Assembly (NCBI GenBank): GCA_018304385.1
Contig: JAGVWJ010000021.1
Span: 1 to 17,212 of the forward strand
Length of the DNA: 17,212 nucleotides
Source: Candidatus Micrarchaeota archaeon
GTDB taxonomy: Archaea; Micrarchaeota; Micrarchaeia; Anstonellales; Bilamarchaeaceae
Direction of reading: 5' to 3'
Both the position numbers and the translations under genes were made by a program. This document shows, one piece after another, positions 965-17,212 of this stretch. How positions within the stretch are numbered: the stretch's first letter is position 1; each line of letters begins with the position of its first letter. Below the pieces are notes generated by a model. The model saw nothing but the letters and a program-made list of their open reading frames with translations, was not told the origin of the DNA and ran no database searches.

Positions 965-2304
965 TTTATTGTGAATGCGGAACTTGGAACAATATGCAAT
1001 GTCCAGATGGTTTCAGTTGCGAAGATTTAATTCCTCCACAAGCTGGATATGCAACTGGTATATGCAAAAGAATAGAACCGCTTGATATTAAAACGCCAGA
1101 AGAATTGGAAAAAGAAGTAGAAGATGCACTAAAGGTTGAAGGAAAATTAGAAATTAAGCCAGATATAACTGAAGCGAAATTTACCATGCTTAATAAAACG
1201 CTTCTTTTCACTGGTGGATATGCAGATGCATCCGTGATTCAAATAAATGGAAGATATCTAATGTATCTAAACAAGTTTGGTCAAGCAAGCGCAACAGGGG
1301 TATTTGTTCTTAGTTCGCAAGATGGATTATCCTGGAAAGAAGAAACAGATGTAATATTAGACGGAGTTGCAGTTGCACGCGCAGTTCGTTTTTCAAATGG
1401 AGTTCGCGTTTATTACCATCAACCACCTATGAAGAATGAGGATAAGGGTGCAATAGTTAGTTCTTTTTCATCTGATGGCCTAAGCTCTTGGCAATATGAA
1501 GGAGTTAGGATAAGACCACGTTCTGGTTATGATGCTGCTGGACCAACAGTTATCCAGTTAGATAATGGAACTTATAGAATGTTTTTCTATGAAATAAAAG
1601 AAGGTACAGACGCACCTCCTAATGTTCCAGCAGCAGAGATATATGGTGCATCATCCAAAGACGGATTAACATGGAATAGAGATGCAAAAGCAACTATTGT
1701 TTCTGAAATGAACGTTGAAGGAGACGCGATTCCAACTGTCAGACATCCAATGGCTCTTAAATGGAAAGATGGTTATCTGATGTTTTATTGGACACACCAA
1801 AAGATTTATGCTGCCTATTCCCAAGATGGATTCAGCTGGAAAAAACTAGGTTATACTGGGATTAAAGGCGCTGACCCTGATGCAATACCACTTTCTGAAG
1901 GAAACATTAGATTATATTTTGGTGGAGAATGCATCCCAAGTGAACAAGATTGCTCTAAGGTTTTACCTGGGCCAGGAAATGTACATACTACTATACTAAA
2001 AATTGAATGGTCAGCTGAACAAAAAAAGAAAGAAAGGCCGCCTGGCTTGCTATTTGAAGATGGAAAATATATATTAGTATTAAATGATATTGCACTTGAC
2101 CAAACTGTACCTGCTGGTGCCTGTGCCTTGATTGAAATTGTTAAAATTGAGAGCGAAGCGAGCTTACAAAAAGGAAAGATTTGTAAGGGAAGTGATTATT
2201 CTTGGGTTTCACCAGAAGGCAAGCAATTTAAAATTAGATTATTAGATATTGCGCCTGGATATAGTGGTGGCGCTAAGTGGGCTAATTTTTTGATTTTTGG
2301 TTAA
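904..2304 (+). pseudogene. C-terminal part of the same frameshifted lipoprotein: Cys-rich domain, five-bladed beta-propeller (GH43/32/68-like fold, Asp-box-like repeats) and C-terminal beta domain
   Basis: Meaningful coding starts at about 961 (VIYCECG...QCPDGFSC...GICK). There are four SxDGxxW motifs (SSQDGLSW, SSDGLSSW, SSKDGLTW, YSQDGFSW) and five blade starts (ADASV, AVARAV, AAGPTV, VRHPMA, ADPDAI). It has no signal peptide of its own. The ORF-track N-terminus (904-960) is an off-frame read of the upstream fragment. Confidence 0.65.
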
Positions 2305-3338
2305 TGCGTATGCTGCGAACTTCGCATATATGCTTCATTCGCTTGGGTAACGAGACCGGCTTCTAAAAGCGCATCATAAGGAGAACCTTTGTAATAGTTT
2401 CCTACTAACCCACCTAATCCATTATTGTTAAAATCATCTTGGATTATGTCTTTAGGATCTTTCTTTAATTTCCAAACTAGCCATTTACAAGCAGCTATCC
2501 TAATTTCTTTATCAGAATAAATAAGTGGAGCGTTTTTAATTTCCCAAGGATAGATCTTATCAGTTTTAAATTGTCCATTTTGTTCTTTTATTTCATCTTC
2601 AGGATACGCATAGCCTGCTTCCACCAACGCCAAATAAGGAGAGTTTTTGTAATGATTCATTAATCCAGATAATCTATTATTATTAAAATCATCTCCACTG
2701 ACTCTTCTAATCCTTCCTAAATTTCTTCTTATTTCATCCAAAACTTCTTGCATTCTTTTTGCATCAGTTTTTTCTTCTCTTGCAGATTGTAAAATAAGCT
2801 GATCTAGTTCTTCTCTTGATTCATCAAGTCTAGCAGGACTAGCTCCTAGAAATTCTAATAGTTTTTTTATTACTGTTACTCTAATTTGTTTGTTGCTCCA
2901 TGCAATATGATAAGAACGATCAATTAATTTATTATTATAAAGTTCTTCAGCCTTTCCTTCTCTAAGCATTTGTCCTACTTTTGAATTTACTGCTTCTTTA
3001 ATTTCTGATTTAGTTAACGGTCTGGTTATTTCTCTTTTGGTGCTTCTTTCTCTTGCAGAATCATGCTCTCCAAAATGAGTGTCTTGTCTTTCTATATCTG
3101 GAGCTAGCTCAGCATAACCTTTATCTGTTATTTTGTATTTTCCTCTTTCTATAAAAAATAAAGCTAGCCATGTCCTGAATTGTATTTTCTTATCTATTGT
3201 CTGACCGCTTTCGTGTTTTAGATCCTCAGGTTCTAGTTTATAATGAGCTAACCCACCGCAAATTAACCGAAATCTTCGTTCTGGTGCAGGCTGTTGGTAT
3301 TCTTGAAGTGGATGTGCTAAATTAAGTTTAGTCATCAT
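2301..3338 (-). CDS. hypothetical repeat protein, DUF4046-like C-terminal repeats
   Basis: 345-aa ORF with two copies of DDFNNNxLxGL...(Y)YKxSPYxALxEAG 85 aa apart, plus YPWE and KWLV motifs that resemble DUF4046-type repeats as I recall them. An alternative start is at 3335. Confidence 0.7.
   Translation of the reverse strand: MMTKLNLAHPLQEYQQPAPERRFRLICGGLAHYKLEPEDLKHESGQTIDKKIQFRTWLALFFIERGKYKITDKGYAELAPDIERQDTHFGEHDSARERSTKREITRPLTKSEIKEAVNSKVGQMLREGKAEELYNNKLIDRSYHIAWSNKQIRVTVIKKLLEFLGASPARLDESREELDQLILQSAREEKTDAKRMQEVLDEIRRNLGRIRRVSGDDFNNNRLSGLMNHYKNSPYLALVEAGYAYPEDEIKEQNGQFKTDKIYPWEIKNAPLIYSDKEIRIAACKWLVWKLKKDPKDIIQDDFNNNGLGGLVGNYYKGSPYDALLEAGLVTQANEAYMRSSQHTH
2416..2694. repeat. intragenic direct repeat (24 nt, 22/24 identical) at 2416-2439 and 2671-2694
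   Basis: AATCCATTATTGTTAAAATCATCT vs AATCTATTATTATTAAAATCATCT. The offset is 255 nt, equal to 85 codons. Confidence 0.8.
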
Positions 3339-3357: not shown

Positions 3358-3442
3358 TATAAAAAGGTTCTGAATGTACATTGACAAACTCTTTAAATTT
3401 GTTGTTATTTATAATAAATTCTAGATTCTTCTAATTCGAGGT
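3358..3442. promoter_or_regulatory. divergent archaeal promoter region
   Basis: Minus-strand TTTTTATA (3365-3358) lies about 20-22 nt before ATG 3338/3335. On the plus strand, TTTATAAT is at 3408-3415 and SD-like GAGGT at 3438-3442 precedes ATG 3449. Confidence 0.5.
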
Positions 3443-3448
3443 CAATTT

Positions 3449-4129
3449 ATGCCAGTTTTATTAATAAGAGAGATCCAAAGAAAGGGTGCTGTACCTCTAG
3501 CTCAACCCATGGAAGAAGACAAAAGAGAAAAATATGAAAGAGCGCTTGCACTTTTAGCTAATGTTGCAGCGAAGACTACTGGATTCAGTACTTATAAAGA
3601 AAAGCTTGACAATGGAGTTTCTTCAATAATTGGATTTGTAGAAGCTAGAGAAGAATGCCTAAGAAACATAAGAAGAAGAGTTGACGAGCATCTTTCCCAA
3701 ATAAGAGGCAGTTTGACACGCCCAGCAGCATTAAACGGAAATACAAAACAAAGAATACTAGAAAATATGAATCAATTATTAGAAAATGCATTCTACCAAA
3801 TGCAATATCATATTGCGGGAATAGAAATGCCTGAAGAACATCCACAAACTATGGTTAGAATAGCTGCATTTAGCGAGCCTCGTGTATTTAGACCTAATGG
3901 ACAAATTAATCAAAAATTAGCTGCGTTTTTAGCATCGATTGGCGTTGGTAATAGGGATTTTATGGATGCAGTTGAAACAATACGAGATTCCTTACTACCT
4001 GTAAGCGATAAACAAGATGAGTGGAACGCATGCAAGCTAAGATTAAAAGAAATTGCAACAGCAATCGCTAGCGCATACATTGATTTTCATTTAACTGGGC
4101 AACCAATGATAGAAGGACTACAAAGATAA
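3449..4129 (+). CDS. hypothetical, predicted mainly helical protein (226 aa)
   Basis: Long ORF with SD GAGGT and a TATA-like element upstream. I recognise no family motif. Confidence 0.7.
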   Translation: MPVLLIREIQRKGAVPLAQPMEEDKREKYERALALLANVAAKTTGFSTYKEKLDNGVSSIIGFVEAREECLRNIRRRVDEHLSQIRGSLTRPAALNGNTKQRILENMNQLLENAFYQMQYHIAGIEMPEEHPQTMVRIAAFSEPRVFRPNGQINQKLAAFLASIGVGNRDFMDAVETIRDSLLPVSDKQDEWNACKLRLKEIATAIASAYIDFHLTGQPMIEGLQR

Positions 4130-5368: not shown

Positions 5369-6883
5369 ATGAAAGTAATAATAACAGGTAAAGACCTAAC
5401 TATAGAAAAAGTAGTGAACGTTGCCCGACAGTTTGAAGAAGTTGAACTTTCACAAGAGGTTATAAAGCACATCGAAGATTCAGCCTCATTAGTGGACCAG
5501 TTTATTAAGAACAAAAAAAAGTTGTATGGGATTACAACTGGCTTTGGTGCATTAGCTAATTCTATAATACCTCAAGACAAGATTCATGAACTACAATATA
5601 ATATTATAATAAGCCATGCAACAGCTGTTGGAGATCCGTTTCCTACAGAAATTGTTAGAGCCGCGATGCTATTGAAATTAAATACACTTGCGAGTGGATG
5701 CTGTGGTGTAAGACTAAAAACTGTAAAAATGCTAATAGATATGCTAAACAAAAGGATCCACCCGATTATTCCAAGTAAAGGTTCGTTAGGTGCAAGCGGG
5801 GATCTTGCTCCATTGGCTCATATGGCACTTGTTATGATAGGAAAGGGAACTGCAGAATATAATGGAAATATTATTTTAGGTAGTGAGGCACTTAGACTAG
5901 CTGGATTAACTCCATTAGAACTAGAAGCAAAAGAAGGATTATCACTAGTAAACGGTACTCAGATTATGGCCGCAATAGGCGCTTTGGCGATTTATGATAC
6001 GGAAACATTGCTAAAAAACGCAGATATTGCAGCAACGATGACTGCTGAGGCATTAAAAAGCAATGAAGCGCCTTTTGATGAAGAGGTTCATAAACTTCGA
6101 CCACACCCAGGGCAAATAAAATGCGCAAGGAACATAAGGAAATTAATTAAAGAAAGTAAACTAATTGGTTCAAATGGCATTACTCAAGATCCGTATTCCA
6201 TAAGATGTATTCCGCAGGTCAACGGAGCAGTAAAGGATACTATCGAGTTTTGTAGAAAAATAATGGAAACAGAGATTAATGCTGTAACAGATAACCCAGT
6301 GATATTATTAGAAAGCAAACGAATACTATCGTGTGGACATTTTCACGGTGAATACCTTGCATTTGCTTTAGATTTTTTGGCAATAGCAATAGCTGAACTT
6401 GCAGACATCGCAGAGAGAAGAATTGCACGATTAGTAGACCCAAAATTAAGTGGATTGGCTGCGTTTCTTATAAATGAGGCAGGTGTTAATTCTGGATTCA
6501 TGATACCACACTACACTGCTGCCGCCCTGGTTTCAGAAAATAAAATATTGTGCCATCCTGCTTCTGTTGATTCAATACCTACTTCTGCAAATCAAGAGGA
6601 TCATGTAAGCATGGGAGCAACAGCTGCGAACAAGCTACTGCAAGTAATATTCAACGTACAAAATGTAATATGTATAGAATACATATGTGCTGCTCAAGCA
6701 CTTGATTTAATAAACGGAAAACAAGGTATTGGAACTAATGCTGCTTATAAAACTATAAGAAAAAAGATAAAATTTCTTGAAAAAGATGAAGAACTCCATG
6801 GTTATATAATGAAAAGCTTTGAACTTGTAAAAAATGGAGAGATTGTTAGAGACGTTGAAACCGCTATAGGAGGATTGGAATGA
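5369..6883 (+). CDS. hutH: histidine ammonia-lyase
   Basis: YGITTGFG, the SH motif (IIISHA), the MIO-forming GASGDLAPLAH, NGTQ, QDPYSIRCIPQ, DNP, GHFHG and SANQEDHVSMG. Confidence 0.97.
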   Translation: MKVIITGKDLTIEKVVNVARQFEEVELSQEVIKHIEDSASLVDQFIKNKKKLYGITTGFGALANSIIPQDKIHELQYNIIISHATAVGDPFPTEIVRAAMLLKLNTLASGCCGVRLKTVKMLIDMLNKRIHPIIPSKGSLGASGDLAPLAHMALVMIGKGTAEYNGNIILGSEALRLAGLTPLELEAKEGLSLVNGTQIMAAIGALAIYDTETLLKNADIAATMTAEALKSNEAPFDEEVHKLRPHPGQIKCARNIRKLIKESKLIGSNGITQDPYSIRCIPQVNGAVKDTIEFCRKIMETEINAVTDNPVILLESKRILSCGHFHGEYLAFALDFLAIAIAELADIAERRIARLVDPKLSGLAAFLINEAGVNSGFMIPHYTAAALVSENKILCHPASVDSIPTSANQEDHVSMGATAANKLLQVIFNVQNVICIEYICAAQALDLINGKQGIGTNAAYKTIRKKIKFLEKDEELHGYIMKSFELVKNGEIVRDVETAIGGLE

Positions 6884-7860
6884 AATATCTCAAACCTAGC
6901 AATGTGGATATTTACGAACCTGTACGTGATGAGAATGACATTAGAATTAAGAACATAATACGGAATTACAAAGAAGATGAGGAATGTAATATTGGAATAA
7001 TTGGTGTACCTTTTGATTATGGTGTTGAGCTTAGCAATGGAAGAGTTGGAGCAAAAGAAGGGCCGAATGCAGTTCGAACTGCGCTTAAAAGATATGGTTC
7101 GATTTATAATGTAGAAAAAAACATCAATATTAGCGATTTGAAAATTTGCGATTTTGGAGATGTTGAAGTTGTTGAACGAGATTCACAAGAAACACATGCA
7201 CGTGTTAGCGAAACTGTTTTCGAACTAGTAAAGAAAGATGTTTTACCTATTGTTATCGGAGGCGGGCATGATATAAGCTTTGCAAATGTGCGTGGTCTTT
7301 GTAATGCTTTTGATGGAAAGATTGGCGGGATAAACATAGATGCACATTTTGATGTTCGTATTGTTAAGAATGGAAAAAATTCTAGTGGAACATCTTTTAG
7401 GCGAGTTTTGGAAGAATTGGATGGCAAGGTTTTAGGAAAGAATTTTGTTGAGATTGGTTGCCATGATAATTTGAATTCAAAAACTTATTATGAATATTTA
7501 CTTGCAAAGAAATCGAATATTATTACACTAAGTGAAGTCCAGAAAAAAAGAATGAAGAAGATTATGGTGGGTGCATTAAAGATTGCGAATGCTGCAACGA
7601 AAGCGAGTTTTGTCAGTGTTGATATCGATGCAATGCCACAGCATGTTGCCCCAGGATGTAGCGCGCCAAGCGCAAGAGGAATTCAAGCTCATGATATTTT
7701 AGAGGCTTGTTTTATTGCTGGTGTTAATTCTAAGGTAAAACTATTTGACATCATGGAACTAAATCCAAGATATGATGTTGATAATAGAACTGCATTGCTT
7801 GCTGCCACCATGATTGTGAGCTTCTTGGAGGGATTTGCTATGCGGAATAAAAGTAAGTGA
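6880..7860 (+). CDS. hutG: formimidoylglutamase (arginase/ureohydrolase family)
   Basis: [34 protein letters not shown] and SVDIDA metal motifs. It sits within the hut cluster with an ATGA overlap with hutH. Confidence 0.9.
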
Positions 7861-7864
7861 GAAA

Positions 7865-9547
7865 ATGCGCCCAATGTATTACGAAGAAAAACCAAAAGAG
7901 AAAATTCGTGCGCCTAGAGGAAATGATCTACATTGCAAAAATTGGGATGCTGAAGCTGCAATGCGTATGCTAATGAATAATCTGGATCCAGAAGTTGCTA
8001 TTGATTCAGATGAGCTTATTGTTTATGGTGGCACAGGAAGAGCTGCAAGAAATTGGAGAGAGTACAATAGAATAATCAAAGCACTTCTTAAGCTTGAGAA
8101 TGATGAGACGCTTTGCATACAAAGCGGAAAACCTGTTTATGTTGCGCCTACTAACCTAGAGGCACCACGCATTATTTTGGCGAATTCTAATATTGTTCCG
8201 AAATGGTCTACGCAGGAGAACTTTGATAAGTATGATGAGATGGGGCTTACAATGTATGGTCAAATGACTGCAGGAAGTTGGATTTACATCGGCACCCAGG
8301 GGATAATACAAGGAACATATGAAACATTTGCAGCCCTAGGTAAGAAAGATTTGAAAGTTGATTCACTAAAAGGAAAACTTATTTTAACTGCTGGAATGGG
8401 CGGGATGAGCGGTGCTCAACCTTTAGCAGCAACAATGAATGATGCAATAATCCTGAATGTTGAGGTTAGAAAGGAAAGAATAGAAAGAAAAGTTAGAGAA
8501 GGATATTGCGATAGAATAACTGAAGATTTAGATGAAGCACTAAGGTGGATTGAGGATGCAAAAAAGAGAGGAGAGGCAGTTTCTATTGGATTAATTGGTA
8601 ATGCTGGAAACATTTATCCTGAGCTTGTTAGAAGAAATATAACACCTGATATAGTTACAGATCAAACACCTGCGCACAATTTACTGAGCTATGTTCCTAC
8701 GGGGAATTTAAAGGAATTAGATGAAATAAGAGATAAAAATCCTAACGAATATAAACGCAAAGCACTTGAGTCAATAAAAAAACATGTTGATGCAATGCTG
8801 GAAATGCAAAAGCGTGGAGCGATTGTATTTGATTATGGAAATAATCTACGTGCGCAGGCAGAATTAGCAGGATTAGATATACGTAAAAAAGATGGTTCGT
8901 TTAAATATCCTGGGTTTGTTCCAGCTTATATCCGACCGTTATTCTGCATTGGAAAAGGACCATTTAGGTGGGCAGCACTTTCTGGTAATACAGAGGATAT
9001 TCACAAAATTGACAAAATGCTTATTGACTTATTTCCAGAAGATAAGGCATTAAAACGCTGGCTCGAGTTAGCTTCTAAGAAAATCCCATTTACTGGATTA
9101 CCAGCACGTATCTGTTGGTTTGGATATGGTGACCGTGCTCTTGCTGCAATAGAAATAAATAAAATGGTAAGAAAAAGAGAGATTGAGGCACCTATTGTAA
9201 TTGGTAGAGACCATCTAGATTGCGGTTCTGTTGCTTCACCTGATAGAGAAACTGAAGGAATGAAGGACGGCAGTGATGCTATAGCAGATTGGCCTTTGCT
9301 TAATTTCGCTTTAAACACTTGTAATGGCGCGAGTTGGGTAAGTTTTCATAATGGTGGTGGCGTGGGCATAGGAAATTCATTACATGCGGGTATGGTAATT
9401 GTTGCTGATGGAACAATAGAAAGAGAAAAGCGCCTTAAACGGGTCTTAACTGTTGATCCAGGTATCGGAATAGCTAGACATGTTGATGCAGGGTATGAAG
9501 AAGCAATAGAAACTGCTAAGAAAAAAGGAGTGAATGTTCCTAAATAA
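7865..9547 (+). CDS. hutU: urocanate hydratase
   Basis: [77 protein letters not shown] and HNGGGVGIG. The start is placed at ATG 7865 (or 7874), after the hutG stop, rather than at 7835. Confidence 0.97.
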
Positions 9548-10816
9548 ATGGAGACAATTATGATTACTGCTGATTTAGTAATAAAAAACGCATCCGAATT
9601 GCTTACTATCAAAGGCGCATCAAATAAACCAAAAGTTAAAGAACAATTGAGTAATTTAGGAATAATAAACAATGGAGCGATAGCGATAGCTGGCGAGAGT
9701 ATTGTATGGCTGGGGGGAAGTAATGAGATAAAAGATAACATTAAGATAGATAAAAAAACTAGAATTATTGATGCGAAAAACAAAGTTGTTATGCCTGGAT
9801 TTGTTGATTGTCATACTCATTTAGTCTTTGCTGGCTCACGGGAAAAAGAGTGGGTTGATAGAATAAATGGAAAGGATTATTTGGAAATACTAAAAAACGG
9901 AGGGGGGATTTTAAGCACAGTTAATGCAACTCGCAATGCGGGCGAAGAAGAATTATTGAATAGAGCACTTCATCATCTTGGTAATATGCTAAATCATGGT
10001 ACTACCACGATAGAGGCTAAAAGCGGATATGGTCTTACAATTGACTCCGAGATAAAGATATTAAGATTACTAAAAAAGCTTGCTAAAAAACAGCCAATAG
10101 AAATAGTTTCAACGTTTCTTGGCGCGCACGCAGTTCCACCAGAGTTTGCGAATAGTGCAGTATATGCAAAATTCATAATTGAAAAAATGATTCCAGTTGT
10201 TGCAAAATTAGCTGATTACTGCGATGTATTTTGCGAAAAAAGTGCATTTTCTGCTGAAGAAACAAAAAGAATTTTATTGGCTGGAAAAAAATATGGACTT
10301 AGGCCACGCGCTCATATTAATGAGTTCAACGAAATAGGTGGAACTGAAATTGCGAAAGAGGTTAAAGCAATAGCAGTAGATCATTTGGATGTTGTTTCTG
10401 ATGATGGAATTAAAAACATAAGAGAAGCAGGCAGCATTACTGTTTTGCTCCCAGGCGTTCCATTCTTTTTAGGAACTGAAAAGTACGCGCCAGCTAAAAA
10501 AATTATACATGCTGGCATTCCTATAGCAATTGCTACTGATTTTAATCCTGGTTCTTGTTATTGTGAATCAATGCCTTTTATTATAAGTTTAGCATGTATG
10601 AAAATGAAACTAAGCCCAGCACAAGCAATAAACGCTGCAACTATAAATGCAGCGCATGCGATTGAAAGTGCAAATAATATTGGAAGTATTGAGGTAGGAA
10701 AACAAGCGGATATCTTGATTTTAGATGTTGAACAGCATACTCAGATTCCTTATCACTTAGCTGCAAATCCTGTAAGGATAGTAATAAAAAAAGGTAGGAT
10801 TGTAAAAAGAAATTAG
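9548..10816 (+). CDS. hutI: imidazolonepropionase
   Basis: PGFVDCHTHLVFAG, GGGILSTV, GTTTIEAKSGYGL, FLGAHAVP, DVFCE, DHL and ATDFNPG. The ATG directly follows the hutU stop. An alternative start is at 9560. Confidence 0.96.
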   Translation: METIMITADLVIKNASELLTIKGASNKPKVKEQLSNLGIINNGAIAIAGESIVWLGGSNEIKDNIKIDKKTRIIDAKNKVVMPGFVDCHTHLVFAGSREKEWVDRINGKDYLEILKNGGGILSTVNATRNAGEEELLNRALHHLGNMLNHGTTTIEAKSGYGLTIDSEIKILRLLKKLAKKQPIEIVSTFLGAHAVPPEFANSAVYAKFIIEKMIPVVAKLADYCDVFCEKSAFSAEETKRILLAGKKYGLRPRAHINEFNEIGGTEIAKEVKAIAVDHLDVVSDDGIKNIREAGSITVLLPGVPFFLGTEKYAPAKKIIHAGIPIAIATDFNPGSCYCESMPFIISLACMKMKLSPAQAINAATINAAHAIESANNIGSIEVGKQADILILDVEQHTQIPYHLAANPVRIVIKKGRIVKRN

Positions 10817-10843
10817 AATATAATAAATATTGGGGTGGATTTT

Positions 10844-11512
10844 ATGGATGTCATTGAGGAGATAGATAAAAGAATTCAGGAAAGAAGTATATTAAAACAT
10901 CCTTTTTATCAGAGCTGGAAAATGGGAAAGCTAACTCGTGAGATGTTACAAGAGTATGCAAGACAATATTATAAGCATGTTGCTGCTTTTCCACAATATC
11001 TAAGCGCAGTGCATACACAGATGGATAATGCGACTGACAGAAGATTGGTATTACAGAACCTAATGGATGAGGAAAACGGAGAAAACAACCATCCAGAGCT
11101 TTGGCTAAGGTTTGCTGAGGCAACTGGAGTAATAAGAAATGATATTGGTACTGTACCTACTGCAGAAACAGAAGATTTCATTAAAAACTTTATGAAACAC
11201 TGCAAAAACAGTATTGTAGAGGGCATCGCAGCACTTTATGCATATGAATCCCAAATACCAAAAGTCAGCGAGGAGAAAATTAATGGATTAGTAGCGCATT
11301 ATGGAGTAACTAGCGATTCAGGCTTAGAATATTTCAAGGTTCATATGACTGCTGATGTTGAGCATTCTGCTGCTGAACGCGAGCTTATTAGAAAATATGT
11401 TACAGATGAAGAAACTAAAAAGAAAGTGCTTGAGGCTGTAAGCAACACGCTTGATGCTTATTGGAATATGCTAAGTGGGATAGAAAAAATATGTAAAATG
11501 GAATGTAGTTAG
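10844..11512 (+). CDS. CADD-family (Chlamydia CT610-like) heme-oxygenase-like diiron protein, putative self-sacrificing p-aminobenzoate synthase
   Basis: HPFY, YARQYY, AFPQYLSAVH, NLMDEENG.NH, AALYAYESQIP..SEEKI.GL and H...DVEH match CADD motifs. The SD-like GGGGTGG at 10832-10838 favours ATG 10844 over GTG 10835. Confidence 0.88.
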   Translation: MDVIEEIDKRIQERSILKHPFYQSWKMGKLTREMLQEYARQYYKHVAAFPQYLSAVHTQMDNATDRRLVLQNLMDEENGENNHPELWLRFAEATGVIRNDIGTVPTAETEDFIKNFMKHCKNSIVEGIAALYAYESQIPKVSEEKINGLVAHYGVTSDSGLEYFKVHMTADVEHSAAERELIRKYVTDEETKKKVLEAVSNTLDAYWNMLSGIEKICKMECS

Positions 11513-12114
11513 CTAGTCAACCCATCCAAAATCTCATACGCTCTTGCAGTATCTGCCTGCTTTATTACCAAGAGAGTATCAGTATAACAAGAAACAAACT
11601 CTGCTATATTTATTCCTTCTGCTGAAAGCGCATCTAAGATATGCGCAATTACCCCTGGAACTTCTTCAAGCGCTGGCGGACTGTGGATTGTTATTAAGTT
11701 AAGATTAGTTTCGGTATGAAGTACATTCTTTGATTTTCGTACGTTTTCTAGTTCCTTTTCTTCCACCACATACGTAATGGTATCTTTGCTTTCTACATAA
11801 GAGAGATATTTTAGTTGTTCTATCTCTCGCGCACTAATAACAACTGCTACTTTGCTCTTTAGCGATATTGAACTGTCCTTTAGTACTTTCAGTATCTTGC
11901 TTTCCAAATCTTCTTCTTTTTCCCTAATCTTTGATGTTAAACGCACTAATGCCATTTTTATAGCGTTCTGGTGCTTTTTGCTTCCAAACACTTCTATAGA
12001 AATTTTTCTGGCTAAAGCTGAGTAATTTACTATGCCTTCACGCACTATTTCTTTCAAGAAGGGTCTTCGCTTTATGTAAAGCCATACGAGTTCGCTTATG
12101 TTTTCTTTTTTCAT
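11509..12114 (-). CDS. putative amino-acid-sensing transcriptional regulator: N-terminal HTH-like region plus C-terminal ACT domain
   Basis: N-terminal VNYSALARKI...AIKMALVRL (helix-turn-helix-like) and C-terminal PGVIAHILDALSAEGINIAEFVSCYTDTLLVIK (ACT). It is divergent from argF. ATG 12114 is preferred over TTG 12123. Confidence 0.75.
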   Translation of the reverse strand: MKKENISELVWLYIKRRPFLKEIVREGIVNYSALARKISIEVFGSKKHQNAIKMALVRLTSKIREKEEDLESKILKVLKDSSISLKSKVAVVISAREIEQLKYLSYVESKDTITYVVEEKELENVRKSKNVLHTETNLNLITIHSPPALEEVPGVIAHILDALSAEGINIAEFVSCYTDTLLVIKQADTARAYEILDGLTS

Positions 12115-12137
12115 ATTTCTCAAGGCTCATTGCTATA

Positions 12138-12202
12138 TGTTACATTTGGAACAATTAAATATATAAATGTAACATTTATTACGCAATGTTTAAATATAAA
12201 GT
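12138..12202. promoter_or_regulatory. divergent promoter/operator block, copy A (argF operon on +, ACT regulator on -)
   Basis: TGTTACA-TT-TGGAACA (12138-12153), a 14-nt spacer holding the minus-strand TATA TTTATATA (12167-12160), TGTAACA-TT-TATTACG (12168-12183) and TATA TTTAAATA (12189-12196) 22 nt before ATG 12219. It is near-identical to 16519-16583. Confidence 0.8.
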
Positions 12203-12218
12203 AACGCGTAACAAACTT

Positions 12219-13133
12219 ATGAAAAATATACTTAGTGATTTTGATCTCTCCGGGCAGGAAATAGAAGATTTGTTAGGTCTAGCAACAAAAATAAAGGCAG
12301 CTCCAGCATCATTCAAAGATTCATTAAAAAACAAAATTTTAGGTATGGTATTTCAAAAACCTTCCACACGTACCAAAGCATCATTTGAAGCAGCTATATA
12401 CCAACTTGGCGGGCATGCAATATTTCTAGATTCTACTAACAGCCAGATAAGCAGAGGGGAATCGTTGGCTGAAACTGCTAAAATCTTATCAGGATATACA
12501 AATGGAATTGCTGCTAGAGTATACTATCAGGCAGATTTAGAAGATATGGCCATGGCAAGTAAAGTACCAATAATAAACGCATTAACCGATAAATATCATA
12601 CGTGCCAGATTTTATCTGATCTGCTTACAATAAAAGAGAAAAAAGGCAAGCTAGCTGAGTTAAAATTAGTCTATTTTGGGGATGCAGGAAACAACGTAGC
12701 CCACTCTCTGATCATTTCTTGTTCTAAGGTTGGCATAGATGTTACTATTGCCTGCCCGCAAAATGAAAAATATCAACCTTCAAAGGATATTCTTGTAAAA
12801 GCAAAGAGAGATGTACTTGGAAAAATAGAAATAACAGAAAACTGGAATGCTGCAGCAAAGGATGCAGACATTCTTTATACTGACACCTGGGTAAGCATGG
12901 GAATGGAAAAAGAAAAAAACGAAAGAATAAATGACCTAATGGATTACCAGATAAACTCAAAGACACTGGAAAAAGCAAAGGCAGACTGCATTGTCATGCA
13001 TTGCCTACCTGCTTACACCGGGTATGAGATATCTGAAACTGTTTTGAAAGGCCCAAAATCAGTTGTATATGAGCAAGCAGAAAATAAAATGCACATGCAG
13101 AAGGCAGTACTTTATCAACTTATGAAAGATTAG
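12219..13133 (+). CDS. argF: ornithine carbamoyltransferase
   Basis: FQKPSTRT, INAL, HTCQ (HPCQ variant), GDAGNNVAHS, YTDTWVSMG, HCLPA and QAENK. The start is placed at ATG 12219 (MKNILS...) because the 12186 extension would run through the TATA box. Confidence 0.95.
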   Translation: MKNILSDFDLSGQEIEDLLGLATKIKAAPASFKDSLKNKILGMVFQKPSTRTKASFEAAIYQLGGHAIFLDSTNSQISRGESLAETAKILSGYTNGIAARVYYQADLEDMAMASKVPIINALTDKYHTCQILSDLLTIKEKKGKLAELKLVYFGDAGNNVAHSLIISCSKVGIDVTIACPQNEKYQPSKDILVKAKRDVLGKIEITENWNAAAKDADILYTDTWVSMGMEKEKNERINDLMDYQINSKTLEKAKADCIVMHCLPAYTGYEISETVLKGPKSVVYEQAENKMHMQKAVLYQLMKD

Positions 13134-13142
13134 GTGTCAAAC

Positions 13143-14444
13143 ATGAAAGAAACGATGATGAAAATTCTAAAGAGTTTTGGACTGGACAAGGAATTAGACC
13201 TTTACTTACAGCTATTCCATAAGACACCAGCAACTAAATTTGCAGTAGTTAAAATAAGCGGTAACACATTGGAAGAAAAACTATTGGTTGTTGCAGAGGA
13301 TCTGGCATTTCTTTCTAAACTTGGTCTTACGCCAATCGTAGTCCATGGTGGTGGCAAACAGATTGATAAACAACTAGAAAAAAATGGACTCGCAATCAAA
13401 AAAGTTTCAGGCCTTAGAATTACGGATAAAGAAACCATGAAAATAGCCTACAAAGTAATGAATAATATTACAAATAAACTCGTAAAGGCTATAACTAATG
13501 AAGGTGGACATGCAATCAATGCAAATGGATTAGAACTAATTGAAGTGGAGAAAAAACCGCCAGTTAAAGGTATAGATCTCGGGTTCGTAGGTGACTTAAC
13601 AAAAATAAAAACTGATAAAATAACTGAGTTATGCCAATCAGGTTATATCCCAATTTTGGCTTCAATAGGCCACAAGGAGGATGTTGCTTATAATCTAAAT
13701 GCGGACACGCTTGCAAGCGGATTTGTTAAAAGGCTAAAACCAAAAAAGTTTATATTAATCACTGAAACAGGAGGAGTTCTTGATAAAAACGAACAGATAA
13801 TATCAACAATAGACATTAGTACTGATCTGCCCGAGCTGATAAAACAGAATGTAATTACTGAAGGAATGCTTTTGAAAGTAAAGGAAATAGAAACACTTTT
13901 GGAGAAAGCGCCAACTACAGTTGTGGAAGTGTGCTCAGCTGAGAATCTTCTACAAGAACTATTTACCGTAAAAGGAAGTGGAACTTTCATAAGATATGGC
14001 GGGAATTTTATCATTAGAAAAAGTTTCAAAGGACTAAACACAACTAAGATAAAAAAACTACTTGAAGAAAGTTTTGGTAAGGAGCTTGTGCCAGGATATT
14101 TTTATAAAGCTGTTGACAGCGTCATAACAGACAAAGACTACTCTGGAATAATGATTGTAAAAAAGATAAATGGAGTGCCTTATCTGGATAAATTTGCAAT
14201 AACGAAAAGCGCGCAGGGCAATGGGTTGGGAAAAGCAATGTGGACTTTTGTAAAAAATCACTACCCAACGCTTATATGGCGTTCTTCGATAACCAATCCT
14301 ATAAATAACTGGTACTTTAAAAATTGCGATGGCATCCAGAAAAGCAATGGGTGGATAATTTTTTGGTATAATGTAAGCAGAACAAAAGCAACAGCATTAA
14401 TACCAATTATATCAAAAATACCAAAAACACTGGTGAAAAAATGA
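13143..14444 (+). CDS. argB: acetylglutamate kinase fused to DUF619/GNAT domain (Xanthomonas/fungal-type, probable bifunctional N-acetylglutamate synthase/kinase)
   Basis: AAK domain: FAVVKISG, PIVVHGGG, GLRITD, NLNAD, TGGVLD, ELFTVKGSGT. GNAT domain: LLEESFGKELV, YLDKFAI...AQGNGLG, WRS...N.INNWYF..CDG, FWY. SD AGGTG lies 6 nt before ATG 13143; the alternative is GTG 13134. Confidence 0.9.
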   Translation: MKETMMKILKSFGLDKELDLYLQLFHKTPATKFAVVKISGNTLEEKLLVVAEDLAFLSKLGLTPIVVHGGGKQIDKQLEKNGLAIKKVSGLRITDKETMKIAYKVMNNITNKLVKAITNEGGHAINANGLELIEVEKKPPVKGIDLGFVGDLTKIKTDKITELCQSGYIPILASIGHKEDVAYNLNADTLASGFVKRLKPKKFILITETGGVLDKNEQIISTIDISTDLPELIKQNVITEGMLLKVKEIETLLEKAPTTVVEVCSAENLLQELFTVKGSGTFIRYGGNFIIRKSFKGLNTTKIKKLLEESFGKELVPGYFYKAVDSVITDKDYSGIMIVKKINGVPYLDKFAITKSAQGNGLGKAMWTFVKNHYPTLIWRSSITNPINNWYFKNCDGIQKSNGWIIFWYNVSRTKATALIPIISKIPKTLVKK

Positions 14445-15580
14445 TAACTAAAGATGGACAAAATTACATAATGAATACTTACAAGCGCTATCCGATTACT
14501 TTAAAAAACGGCAAAGGATGCAATGTTTACGATCATGAAGGAAACGAATATCTGGATATGATTTCTGGAATTGCCTGCTGTCCGCTTGGCCATTCAAATG
14601 AAGCAATAAAAAAAGCGATAATGGAAAGTGCGGATGGGTTTACCAACATCAGCAATCTGTTTTACACTGAACAACAAGTAAAGCTGGCAAAGAAACTAGT
14701 TGAAGTATCAGGCATGGAAAAATGCTTCTTTGGAAACAGCGGCACTGAAGCAAACGAAGCTGCCTTAAAGCTCGCGATTGCAAATACAAAGAAACATGAA
14801 TTCATTGCATGTAAAAATGCATTCCATGGAAGAACTTTTGGAAGCTTGTCTGCGACATGGGAGAAAAAATACCGCACAAAATTTAAGCCATTGGTTTCAA
14901 AATTTAAATTTGTTGAATATGGAAATACAAACGCAATTGAAAACACCATATCTGATAAGACAGCTGCAGTCATCATTGAGCCGATACAAGGTGAAGCAGG
15001 CATTATTGTTCCTCCGGAAGATTACCTGAAAGAAGTGCAAGAGATATGCGACAAAAAAGGAGTACTCCTGATTATAGATGAAGTGCAGACTGGGAATGGA
15101 AGAACTGGGACCTACTTTGAGTACCTTTCACATTCTATAAAGCCAGACATTGTAACTACTGCAAAGGGACTTGCTAATGGATTGCCAATGGGAGTAGCAA
15201 TTGCAAAAGGAATAGACTTTGAGCCAGGCGACCATGCTTCTACTTTTGGAGGCAATTCATTTGTTTCTTCTGTTGCATTGACTACTATTGAAACTATATT
15301 CAAAGAAAATTTAATGGAAAATGCAAAGAACATTGGAGAATATATAAAAAATGAAATACAAATGCTAAATAAAAAATCTATTAAGGATATTCGTGGTAAG
15401 GGCTTAATGATTGGCATAGAGCTAAGAAAAAATGCAAAGGAAAAAGTAGCTGAATTTATATCAAAAAAGATATTGATATCTGTTGTACATGAAAAAACAA
15501 TCAGATTACTGCCCCCGCTCATTATCAACAAGGGTGAGGTAGAAAATTTCATATCTTCATTCAACGAGGTAGTAAAATGA
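14441..15580 (+). CDS. argD: acetylornithine (or ornithine) aminotransferase, class III PLP enzyme
   Basis: YLDMISGIA...LGH, SNLF, NSGTEANEAALK, FHGRT, EPIQGEAG, DEVQTG.GRTG, TTAKGLANG and HASTFGGN. ATGA overlap with argB. Confidence 0.9.
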   Translation: MITKDGQNYIMNTYKRYPITLKNGKGCNVYDHEGNEYLDMISGIACCPLGHSNEAIKKAIMESADGFTNISNLFYTEQQVKLAKKLVEVSGMEKCFFGNSGTEANEAALKLAIANTKKHEFIACKNAFHGRTFGSLSATWEKKYRTKFKPLVSKFKFVEYGNTNAIENTISDKTAAVIIEPIQGEAGIIVPPEDYLKEVQEICDKKGVLLIIDEVQTGNGRTGTYFEYLSHSIKPDIVTTAKGLANGLPMGVAIAKGIDFEPGDHASTFGGNSFVSSVALTTIETIFKENLMENAKNIGEYIKNEIQMLNKKSIKDIRGKGLMIGIELRKNAKEKVAEFISKKILISVVHEKTIRLLPPLIINKGEVENFISSFNEVVK

Positions 15581-16479
15581 ACATAAATGTTGCAATACTT
15601 GGAGCGTCTGGCTATGGAGGAAACGAACTGATAAAGATACTTGCAAATCACCCAAAAGTAAAAATAAAGTATGCCCAAAGCAGAAGCAGTGAAGGAAAAA
15701 TGATAAATGAGATTTATTCTGATTCAAATCTGGAAATAAAATACTCAAACCCTTCGGTTGAACAAATAAATTCATGTGACGCGGTTTTTCTTGCATTGCC
15801 CAAAGAGGAAGCTGCTTCAATAGCAACTAAGATAAAAACAGTTATAATAGATTTGAGTCCTGCGCATCGCTTTGATTCAAAATACGTTTATGGCCTTCCT
15901 GAAATAAACAAGGAAAAAATCAAAAAATCAAATTTCATAGCAAATCCAGGGTGTTATGCAACTGCTTGCATCTTGGGCATATTGCCAATAGCTGGTAAAA
16001 AAATCAGTGCAATTGCATTCGATTGTAAAAGCGGTTATTCGGGTGGAGGGAAGAACAAGAAATATGAATTTGAAGAAAATGTAATCCCTTACTCATTGAA
16101 GGATCATTATCAAAAGCCTGAGGTTGCCAAGTTCCTAAGAATACCGTTTTCATTCGTTCCTCATGTTGTAAATGCATTTAGAGGGTTAATAGCAACTATC
16201 CATATTTTTGGGGAGATTGAATCCAAAGATTTCGAAAAACTTGAAATGATTTATAAAAAGTTTTATGAAAAAGAACCTTTGGTTAGAATTATAAGTGAGG
16301 TTCCAGACTTTAGTAAAGTAAATAATCAACCAGGTTGCCTAATTGGCGGGTTCTCTAAATCCAAAGATCATATAGTTATAGTAAGCGCTATTGATAATTT
16401 ACTAAAAGGTGCTGCATCGCAGGCAGTACAAAACATGAATATAAAATTTGGATTTAAGGAAACTGAAGGACTGAGATAA
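15577..16479 (+). CDS. argC: N-acetyl-gamma-glutamyl-phosphate reductase
   Basis: GASGYGG, VFLALP, IDLS..HR, YGLPE, IANPGCYAT (catalytic Cys), SGYSGGG, FVPHV..FRG and IDNLLKGAASQAVQNMN. ATGA overlap with argD. Confidence 0.95.
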   Translation: MNINVAILGASGYGGNELIKILANHPKVKIKYAQSRSSEGKMINEIYSDSNLEIKYSNPSVEQINSCDAVFLALPKEEAASIATKIKTVIIDLSPAHRFDSKYVYGLPEINKEKIKKSNFIANPGCYATACILGILPIAGKKISAIAFDCKSGYSGGGKNKKYEFEENVIPYSLKDHYQKPEVAKFLRIPFSFVPHVVNAFRGLIATIHIFGEIESKDFEKLEMIYKKFYEKEPLVRIISEVPDFSKVNNQPGCLIGGFSKSKDHIVIVSAIDNLLKGAASQAVQNMNIKFGFKETEGLR

Positions 16480-16518
16480 ACTAAAGAATGCAGTTGATGA
16501 TTCGGGCATCTTCTAATA

Positions 16519-16583
16519 TGTTCCATTTGTAACATCTATTTAAATATTTGTAACATATATTACGCAATATTTAAATATAAAGT
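16519..16583 (+). promoter_or_regulatory. promoter/operator block, copy B (upstream of deiminase-family gene)
   Basis: TGTTCCA-TT-TGTAACA (16519-16534), a 14-nt spacer, TGTAACA-TA-TATTACG (16549-16564) and TATA TTTAAATA (16570-16577) 22 nt before ATG 16600. 54/65 identical to copy A without gaps. Confidence 0.8.
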
Positions 16584-16599
16584 TTGACGCGATAGATAC

Positions 16600-17212
16600 A
16601 TGAATTTACACATAACAGCAAAACTACCAGTAAAACCTGGCTTAAGAAAAAGAGATGCGAAAGCAATTTTAGCTACTAGATTGTTACTAGATACACTAAA
16701 AGACCATCCAAAAGTAAAAATAGTTGAAGTGGCAGATGTATCAAAACGACAAGTTAATTGTACTAGCGAAAAAGGAAAGCTAAGTTCTGCAATAGTCTCA
16801 TTACCAACTTATCTTGATTGGGCAGAACCCATAAACGTTGCTGAGCTTGCGAACATGGGCAATAAACCAAATCGTGCAACTGCAGTTATAGAACACATTC
16901 AATTTCTATTAACATTATTATCACATGGTGTTGAATTAACATTGGTAAAACCGTCAGCGGATACGTTAGAAGGAGTTTATACGCGTGATATTGCAGCAGT
17001 TATAGGACATAAATGCATACTTGCGAATATGGTTGCAGAACCGCGCTGGCCCGAGGAAAAAACAATAACTGGAGGGATAATCCCACCTAGTGAAGTTAAA
17101 CTCGAGGGCGGAAATGTAATAATTGATGGAGATGTTGTATTTATAGGAGTAGGCGACAGAACTAATATTGAAGCAGTAGTTTGGTTGCAAGAAGTAGTTG
17201 GCACAGCATTTC
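16600..17212 (+). CDS. amidinotransferase / arginine deiminase / dimethylargininase superfamily protein (partial, runs off the window; absent from ORF track)
   Basis: Manual translation with no stop: MNLHITAKLPVKPGLRKRDAKAILATRLLLDTLKDHPKVKIVEVADVSKRQVNCTSEKGKLSSAIVSLP...AVIEHIQFLLTLLSHGVEL...EGVYTRDIAAVIG...KLEGGNVIIDGDVVFIGVGDRTNIEAV... SE-G-L, TRD, EGG(N)V and GxxxRTN are family motifs. Confidence 0.85.
   Translation, partial: MNLHITAKLPVKPGLRKRDAKAILATRLLLDTLKDHPKVKIVEVADVSKRQVNCTSEKGKLSSAIVSLPTYLDWAEPINVAELANMGNKPNRATAVIEHIQFLLTLLSHGVELTLVKPSADTLEGVYTRDIAAVIGHKCILANMVAEPRWPEEKTITGGIIPPSEVKLEGGNVIIDGDVVFIGVGDRTNIEAVVWLQEVVGTAF

Follow-up and report, generated by a model that had tools for sequence, protein, structure and literature searches.

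The DNA stretch analyzed here (hereinafter the window) is an entire contig of 17,212 nt from a Candidatus Micrarchaeota genome assembly (1.53 Mb, 36.5% GC, 89% complete) that carries two copies of a 65-bp block upstream of genes. Copy A (12138-12202) lies between the minus-strand gene for an ACT-domain protein and argF, which are divergent and 104 nt apart, and copy B (16519-16583) lies between argC and a deiminase-fold gene, denoted GME for the guanidino-modifying enzyme that it is predicted to encode (Table 1). The explanation that we consider the best as a whole, and in which, with the mechanism included, our confidence is about even, is that both blocks represent a conserved composite operator-promoter module that belongs to an arginine regulon of Micrarchaeota.

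Aligned without gaps, copies A and B agree at 54 of the 65 positions, with 7/14 identities within the spacer and 47/51 in the remainder, and represent the top and longest direct repeat found in the window (12135-12202 vs 16516-16583, 68 nt at 84%). In eight dinucleotide shuffles, the best ungapped 65-nt match contained 39-41 identities, compared to these 54. There are two occurrences of the 16-mer TGTWNCAWWTGNWACA in the window vs 0.12 expected. The boundaries, letters and identity counts of both copies, as previously reported from inspection of these letters alone (hereinafter the sequence-only reading), were reproduced when the sequence was re-read and the counts recomputed, and so was the distance of exactly 22 nt between the TATA box TTTAAATA and the ATG (12189-12196 and the ATG at 12219 in copy A; 16570-16577 and the ATG at 16600 in copy B). 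Both copies are located exactly 81 nt before the start codon. Each consists of a distal operator (a 16-bp dyad), a 14-nt spacer, a proximal operator and a core promoter. Measured from the TATA center, the operator centers are ~47 and ~17 bp upstream, i.e., 30 bp from each other and at approximately -73 (dyad) and -43 (proximal site). The end of the proximal 16-mer is 5 nt away from the TATA box, and this 16-mer overlaps the position of the transcription factor B (TFB) recognition element (BRE) by 2 nt.

Table 1. Features of the window around copies A and B
Feature	Position	Strand	Remarks
hutH, hutG-like, hutU, hutI	5369-10816	+	
TenA/haem-oxygenase-like gene	10835-11512	+	
ACT-domain protein gene, 201 aa	11509-12114	-	Pfam ACT_7 and DUF7523
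Copy A distal operator	12138-12153	+	16-bp dyad TGTTACATTTGGAACA; family conservation 1.39 bits/position, 58 blocks
Copy A spacer	12154-12167	-	minus strand reads TTTATATATTTAAT, the putative TATA box of the ACT gene
Copy A proximal operator	12168-12183	+	TGTAACA (12168-12174), N2, weak half TATTACG; final 2 nt overlap the BRE position
Copy A core promoter	12182-12196	+	BRE-like CGCAATG, then TATA TTTAAATA
Segment apparently shared recently by copies A and B	12168-12202 = 16549-16583	+	35 nt, 33/35 identical
Copy A operon	12219-16479	+	argF to argC
argF	12219-13133	+	Pfam/NCBIfam; first gene of the copy A operon
NAGS/K fusion	13134-14444	+	Pfam/NCBIfam; copy A operon
argD	14441-15580	+	Pfam/NCBIfam; copy A operon
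argC	15577-16479	+	Pfam/NCBIfam; last gene of the copy A operon
Copy B distal operator	16519-16534	+	dyad TGTTCCATTTGTAACA
Copy B spacer	16535-16548		TCTATTTAAATATT; no divergent gene at copy B
Copy B proximal operator	16549-16564	+	TGTAACATATATTACG
Copy B core promoter	16563-16577	+	BRE-like CGCAATA, then TATA TTTAAATA
GME (deiminase-fold gene)	16600-17212, cut by the contig end	+	DDAH / arginine deiminase / arginine dihydrolase superfamily

Some features of the core promoter are general in this genome. A TATA box 21-23 nt upstream of the ATG is present at 146 promoters, including those of copies A and B, with the mode at 22 nt (73 promoters), so this geometry is that of an ordinary leaderless-type promoter; the AA at -4/-3 from the TATA box is likewise found in the 144 other promoters. 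In contrast, the CG at -7/-6, in the BRE position, is missing from these 144 general promoters and is thus specific to the module, whether it is part of the operator, an unusually good BRE or both; it fits the textbook BRE consensus and may simply represent the BRE. Between the TATA box and the ATG (12197-12218 and 16578-16599), and in the related blocks, there is a weak G/C-containing element (consensus ..atTt.g..gCaa, with the 'gC' reaching ~1 bit near -10) that is not seen in the 144 general promoters and might provide a third contact or act as an initiator feature. A genome-wide search with the proximal 20-mer (<=4 mismatches) and a degenerate 16-mer (<=2 mismatches) detected no additional intergenic copies in the 89%-complete assembly, only chance matches within coding sequences; this search was blind at the promoter of carB, which is unassembled because the gene starts at the very edge of its contig (C13).

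The module is widespread among the relatives of this archaeon. The dyad followed by 14 nt and TGTAACA (<=1 mismatch) was found in 55 of the 176 genomes of the order, with 1-4 copies each, vs 2 matches for a reversed-pattern control, far above the background frequency. The prediction that the blocks are modules of protein-binding operators and a promoter is supported. The general layout is a 16-bp dyad TGTTnCAwwTGnAACA, 14 nt, TGTAACA, another 14 nt ending with CGnAA, the TATA box and an ATG ~81 nt from the start of the dyad. Upstream of ACT protein homologs from other genera (55-77% identity), this layout, along with the divergent gene, is present in 26 of the 30 loci; among 62 named loci, the dyad (<=1 mismatch, adjoining the ACT gene start) was identified in 55 and the full pattern in 43. 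Both 14-nt spacings are invariant among the blocks. In the largest class, which comprises 29 of 61 blocks, the ATG is 81-83 nt from the start of the dyad, as it is for both copies in the window. Across 58 blocks, the best conserved element is TGTAACA (1.69 bits per position), along with the CG (1.55), the distal dyad (1.39) and the TATA box (~1.0), compared to 0.27 for the spacer.

The distal site is a clean palindrome. The sequence-only reading had described two heptamer pairs, and for the distal dyad and TGTAACA this description holds; in contrast, the second proximal heptamer, TATTACG, is weak (the 7 nt after TGTAACA carry 0.29 bits per position) except for its terminal CG. The consensus of this weak right half, T.TTAC, is nevertheless the palindromic partner of GTAA.A, and its outer C is strongly conserved. 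In one distant relative (L189), the order is TGTTTCATTTGAAACA, 14 nt and TGTTTCTTTTGAAACT, that is, a full second dyad that ends 5 nt before the TATA box, and in another one (L194), a similar full second dyad follows the first one after 14 nt; these loci suggest that the two-pair model reflects the ancestral design, with the proximal half being degenerate in the family to which the window belongs. A variant dyad, TGTATTATTTGATACA, occurs within the same 16-14-7-14-TATA layout in L174.

The spacer of copy A is not neutral but contains the putative TATA box for the ACT gene on the opposite strand. Where an ACT gene is adjacent, the 3' half of the spacer is conserved and resembles a TATA box when read on the minus strand (0.61 bits per position, 7.2 of 8 positions A/T) whereas in the orphan copies, i.e., those without an adjacent ACT gene, it is not (0.18 bits per position, 5.9 of 8 positions A/T). 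In many relatives in which the ACT start codon abuts the dyad, this minus-strand TATA box is ~23 nt from the start codon, so that the dyad fills the interval between the TATA box and the start of the regulator gene, the classic geometry of autorepression. The orphan copies, such as copy B, are common and retain both sites at full strength (1.35 bits per position for the dyad and 1.59 for TGTAACA); hence both sites appear to serve the downstream promoter rather than autoregulation alone.

The genes downstream of the module are mostly related to arginine, in agreement with the small arginine regulon that had been proposed. Among the first genes after 60 unique blocks from other genomes, there are 16 argG, 15 NAGS-type acetyltransferases (NAT), 8 GME genes, 6 amino-acid kinases (argB, NAGS/K), 5-6 GNAT family genes, 3 HEAT-repeat proteins, two each of argH and M20 peptidases, and one each of argC, an ankyrin protein and a radical-SAM protein. 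The HEAT/PBS-lyase-like repeat proteins (L077, L079, L080), the radical-SAM protein, encoded in a genome of the same genus (L093:2024-2995), and the ankyrin protein (L100) have no obvious link to arginine. Examination of the regions upstream of argF orthologs in 30 relatives showed the dyad in two only (L020 and L029), with most of the orthologs located in other contexts; the module accompanies the ACT gene and various arginine genes, not argF as such. The GME gene yielded Pfam and NCBIfam matches far below every specific cutoff, and further members of the superfamily were detected in two relatives (L075:1582-2577 and L112:837-1811); given that such genes come first after the module in 8 of the 60 unique blocks, it is a conserved member of the arginine regulon and, as judged by its superfamily, a putative guanidino-modifying enzyme.

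The protein that binds the dyad is most probably the product of the divergent gene, a DUF7523 protein with tandem ACT domains, as the sequence-only reading had suggested. The principal argument is that the pairing of the dyad with the ACT gene persists across the relatives: beyond the loci described above, a TGTnnCA-NN-TGnnACA dyad abuts the ACT gene start even at 33-45% protein identity, where it faces argG, GNAT and LysW-like genes, and in a genome labelled Iainarchaeum, the dyad is located at the ACT gene start and faces carB. Homologs of the ACT protein are encoded in 179 of the 401 sampled genomes of the phylum; DUF7523 was also detected in Haloferax volcanii but not in two methanogen control genomes. 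In the AlphaFold model (predicted local distance difference test score of 89.8 for the complete 201-aa protein and 92.4 for the N-terminal head alone), the head consists of four helices (residues 6-15, 18-26, 31-43 and 49-79). The C-terminal ~150 aa resemble the regulatory (tandem ACT) domains of aspartate kinases (E ~1e-8), and a search of PDB sequences with the family profile gave weak matches to aspartokinase ACT domains only. The head contains invariant basic and polar residues (K15, R17, N30, S32, R36, K53, R58) in the second and third helices, and the putative recognition helix, at whose start the compared fragments end, carries a conserved N-[YF]-S-x-L-A-R motif. We consider it quite likely that the module, the regulon and the ACT regulator, taken together, are correctly identified. 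In the literature searched, neither DUF7523 nor an operator of this kind is mentioned, and no arginine regulator or operator has been described from DPANN archaea or within the DUF7523-ACT family. The same genome encodes a second, divergent DUF7523-like open reading frame (ORF; C33:~34249-34890, plus strand, 24 bits), with no TGT...ACA dyad upstream, which may be a paralogous regulator with a different specificity.

The sequence comparisons establish the module, its conservation and invariant geometry, its regulon and its association with the ACT gene; for copies A and B, binding of the ACT protein and the resulting transcriptional control are predictions, and we infer the identity of the binder, the effector and the sign of control. 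In the mechanism that we propose, the ACT protein would bind each operator as a dimer, and its ACT domains would sense arginine or a pathway intermediate and mediate contacts between dimers. On the strong dyad, which lies between the TATA box and the start of the ACT gene, the regulator would repress its own gene; in the effector-bound state, a second dimer would be recruited cooperatively to the weaker proximal site, where it would compete with TFB and the TATA-binding protein (TBP) at the BRE and TATA box. As the outcome, copy A would shut off the argF-NAGS/K-argD-argC operon, and copy B would do the same to the deiminase-fold gene.

Whether the target promoters are repressed rather than activated is, in our assessment, evenly balanced. 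Repression is slightly favored because the TATA box is consensus, the proximal site overlaps the BRE, the affinities of the sites appear to be graded and TrpY provides a precedent; the block-specific CG at the BRE position, which the general promoters lack, and the full second dyad of L189, which ends 5 nt from the TATA box, point in the same direction. Several observations weigh against the explanation as a whole. The head of the ACT protein yields weak, non-specific fold matches (see below), and 23 nt separate the ACT start codon from the dyad in this genome, whereas the two are contiguous in most relatives. Both operators are located upstream of the BRE and TATA box, the usual place of archaeal activator sites, so that activation is nearly as likely, and the conserved CG may merely be a strong BRE. 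Moreover, argG is missing from the assembly: tblastn detected no canonical argG, PF00764 yielded just 32.9 bits for a 291-aa ORF (C35:20185) and, for argH, there was only a sub-threshold ASL_C2 match (C33:19097). Given that the assembly is 89% complete, the absence of argG is not established; nevertheless, with these gaps, the route may be incomplete, and the physiological direction of the regulated genes and the effector logic are uncertain in this organism.

The principal alternative, which we regard as possible but not probable, retains the same module and regulator and differs in the sign of control: bound upstream of the BRE at low effector concentration, the protein would recruit TFB and TBP, and the same binding would repress the divergent regulator gene, a logic comparable to that of bacterial LysR-type regulators and archaeal Tar, Ptr2 and LysM. 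The core elements of activated promoters tend to be weak, and those of the module are near-consensus even so (TTTAAATA, AA at -4/-3); together with the 2-nt overlap of the proximal site with the BRE position and the fact that co-repressor feedback on biosynthesis is the commoner design, this speaks against activation. Of the activator geometry that had been proposed originally, the position of the sites upstream of the BRE and TATA box stands, and the near-consensus core and the BRE overlap fit repression at least equally well. Conversely, the far dyad is equally conserved in the orphan and ACT-adjacent copies, its distance to the target TATA box is constant across the class, and, at about -73 and -43, both sites are positioned upstream of the BRE and TATA box, as is the palindrome from which Tar activates; the authors of the Tar study consider this placement typical of archaeal activators (PMC6737238).

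An improbable alternative is that the operators are genuine but are bound by a different transcription factor encoded elsewhere, with the ACT protein being a non-DNA-binding sensor or enzyme regulator that shares the promoter. The properties of the N-terminal head would be compatible with this possibility: Foldseek found no match with an E-value below 5, the best VIA-align hit (Z 5.7) is in the noise range, with homeodomains and winged helices appearing among many other helical bundles, and the Pfam scan matched no helix-turn-helix (HTH) family, only the DUF; because these fold matches are non-specific, we treat the head as a putative HTH domain. Furthermore, the orphan copies would function without an adjacent ACT gene. 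Against a separate factor, the dyad abuts the ACT gene start over the range of 33-77% protein identity and under at least two phylum-level labels, a hallmark of DNA-binding proteins that regulate their own genes. In addition, helices two and three of the head contain invariant basic and polar residues, and a conserved 80-aa helical head would be needless in a small ACT-only protein.

The comparison of copies A and B with blocks from different genomes shows that their resemblance is uneven. Over the entire 65 nt, the two copies share 54 identities vs a between-genome mean of 39.9 (standard deviation, sd, 4.6) and 31-47 for other within-genome pairs. For the dyad, the 14/16 identities are close to the between-genome mean of 12.9 (38% of the pairs reach 14) and, for the spacer, the 7/14 identities are similarly close to the mean of 5.5 (31% of the pairs reach 7). 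In contrast, positions 30-64 are identical in 33/35 cases vs a between-genome mean of 21.4 (sd 3.2), a value reached by 0.18% of the pairs, with other within-genome pairs not exceeding 26; the next 16 nt (5/16) are ordinary. This pattern indicates that only the proximal site, the BRE, the TATA box and the following 6 nt were recently copied or homogenized in the lineage of the window, and that the dyads are alike through shared function alone. Consequently, the divergence of the spacer between A and B, which had been taken as evidence of selection on the flanking sites, cannot be used in this manner given that both dyad and spacer behave as in unrelated copies from different genomes; the clustering of the mismatches in the spacer (P ~0.001 under uniform change) fits this mosaic better than it fits selection since a duplication of the 65 nt. 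It is extremely improbable that a promoter fragment was simply duplicated not long ago, or that the blocks are a small mobile repeat, with no dedicated regulator and a likeness that reflects recency alone: the 33/35 identity at positions 30-64 exceeds what function alone would explain, so that some recent copying did happen, but the same architecture with fixed spacings precedes arginine genes in 55 genomes, the dyad and TGTAACA (1.4-1.7 bits per position) but not the spacer are conserved in the relatives, and the genome contains two copies only, none of them within genes and with no terminal repeats or target duplications. Pure duplication is contradicted by the cross-genome recurrence, and a repeat resembling a miniature inverted-repeat transposable element is ruled out by the presence of two copies only, both 81 nt before a start codon, and by the location of the module elsewhere, which is always before a gene and usually before one related to arginine.

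Directly upstream of the ACT gene, the window contains a complete histidine-utilization cluster (hutH, an arginase-fold hutG-like gene, hutU and hutI) followed by the TenA-like gene, an amino-acid catabolic island within a small DPANN genome; in a genome of the same genus (L035), a TenA-like gene adjoins the ACT gene as well. Outside the window, the assembly encodes a second ornithine-carbamoyltransferase-like protein, 41% identical to ArgF (C53:19800-20877); before this gene there is a small ORF that contains two CxxC pairs and resembles LysW-type carrier proteins. A 22-nt overlapping palindrome containing TGTACA is located at 3360-3395 of the window, between two divergent genes without Pfam matches (2301-3338, minus strand, and 3449-4129, plus strand). 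An Rfam search of the whole window yielded no family. The small-subunit (SSU) rRNA gene of this genome (C3:28631-30388) scores 1269 bits with the archaeal model vs 978 bits with the bacterial model and spans 1758 nt vs the 1478 positions of the archaeal model, which suggests an insertion of ~280 nt, possibly an rRNA intron.

To our knowledge, archaea mostly lack ArgR, and the module provides a testable handle on the control of arginine genes in archaea without this bacterial regulator. The novel elements are the two-site composite architecture and its invariant spacings, the orphan copies, the tally of the regulon, the ACT-side TATA box within the spacer and the dissection of the likeness between A and B. 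Together, these define a precise, synthesizable cis element, with specified sites and spacings and with predicted transcription starts (no more than a few nt from 12219 and 16600, and near 12135 on the minus strand), accompanied by a candidate regulator and a recurring regulon in dozens of uncultured genomes, so that the hypothesis can be tested wholly in vitro. In addition, the module marks the putative guanidino-modifying GME enzyme as a conserved member of the predicted regulon and can be used as an annotation marker for arginine-controlled genes in Micrarchaeota metagenome bins.

Among the known systems, the module resembles ArgR and its ARG boxes in the coordinated control of arginine genes through repeated operators, with paired sites at each promoter, but the motif is different, as the sequence-only reading had noted, and the candidate regulator has a different fold. 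The ArgR profiles PF01316 and PF02863, which match in 8-9 control bacteria, have no match in the 89%-complete genome, and the 18-bp ARG box (TNTGAATWWWWATTCANW, <=3 mismatches) gives 20 matches vs 20.6 expected in the window, i.e., the background level, with none in 12100-12220 or 16480-16600. In LysR-type promoters, a recognition dyad near -65 is combined with a weaker activation site near -35 and a divergent, autorepressed regulator gene. The counterparts here would be the strong upstream dyad, the weaker proximal site at a distance of about three helical turns, the divergent, autoregulated gene for the regulator and the small-molecule sensor domain, in the context of archaeal transcription machinery and an unrelated protein fold. 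It seems doubtful, although worth stating, that DUF7523-ACT with its two-site, 30-bp-phased module is the long-missing general arginine regulator of ArgR-less archaea operating by a LysR-like logic; if so, one oligomer would autorepress the divergent regulator gene while activating the arginine promoters, a logic not yet described in Archaea, and the deiminase-fold enzyme would be an unrecognized conserved member of the pathway.

The archaeal systems offer closer parallels. The operators described here are located upstream of and adjacent to the BRE and TATA box, similarly to the sites of activators of the Tar, Ptr2, GvpE and LysM type. Tar (TK0271) of Thermococcus kodakarensis is a proven MarR-like activator that binds TGGACA-N8-TGTCCA, with one palindrome per promoter, and for which no amino-acid effector has been found (PMC6737238). 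As with Tar, several operons of a single amino-acid pathway carry a palindrome upstream of the BRE and TATA box, and this shared element defines an archaeal regulon; unlike Tar, the module includes two sites in a fixed phase, and the candidate regulator has an ACT sensor domain. TrpY of Methanothermobacter thermautotrophicus represses its own gene and, in the amino-acid-bound form, also the operon, with the TRP boxes located in overlapping divergent promoters and the regulator divergent from the biosynthesis operon (Xie and Reeve 2005, as summarized in PMC6737238). The arrangement here is similar in that the regulator gene is divergent from a biosynthetic operon across a single intergenic region (26/30 and 55/62 of the relatives' loci), with several short boxes between the genes and the dyad positioned between the ACT TATA signal and the start codon; on the operon side, a regulator bound to the proximal 16-mer, 5 nt from the TATA box and with a 2-nt BRE overlap, or to the second dyad of L189, might exclude TBP and TFB. 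The likeness is one of promoter arrangement. The amino acid and the regulon are different, the TRP box is probably TGTACA, and the system analyzed here, in contrast to that of TrpY, includes orphan copies that form a multi-promoter regulon and a rigid succession of a 16-bp dyad, 14 nt, a 7-mer, 14 nt and the TATA box.

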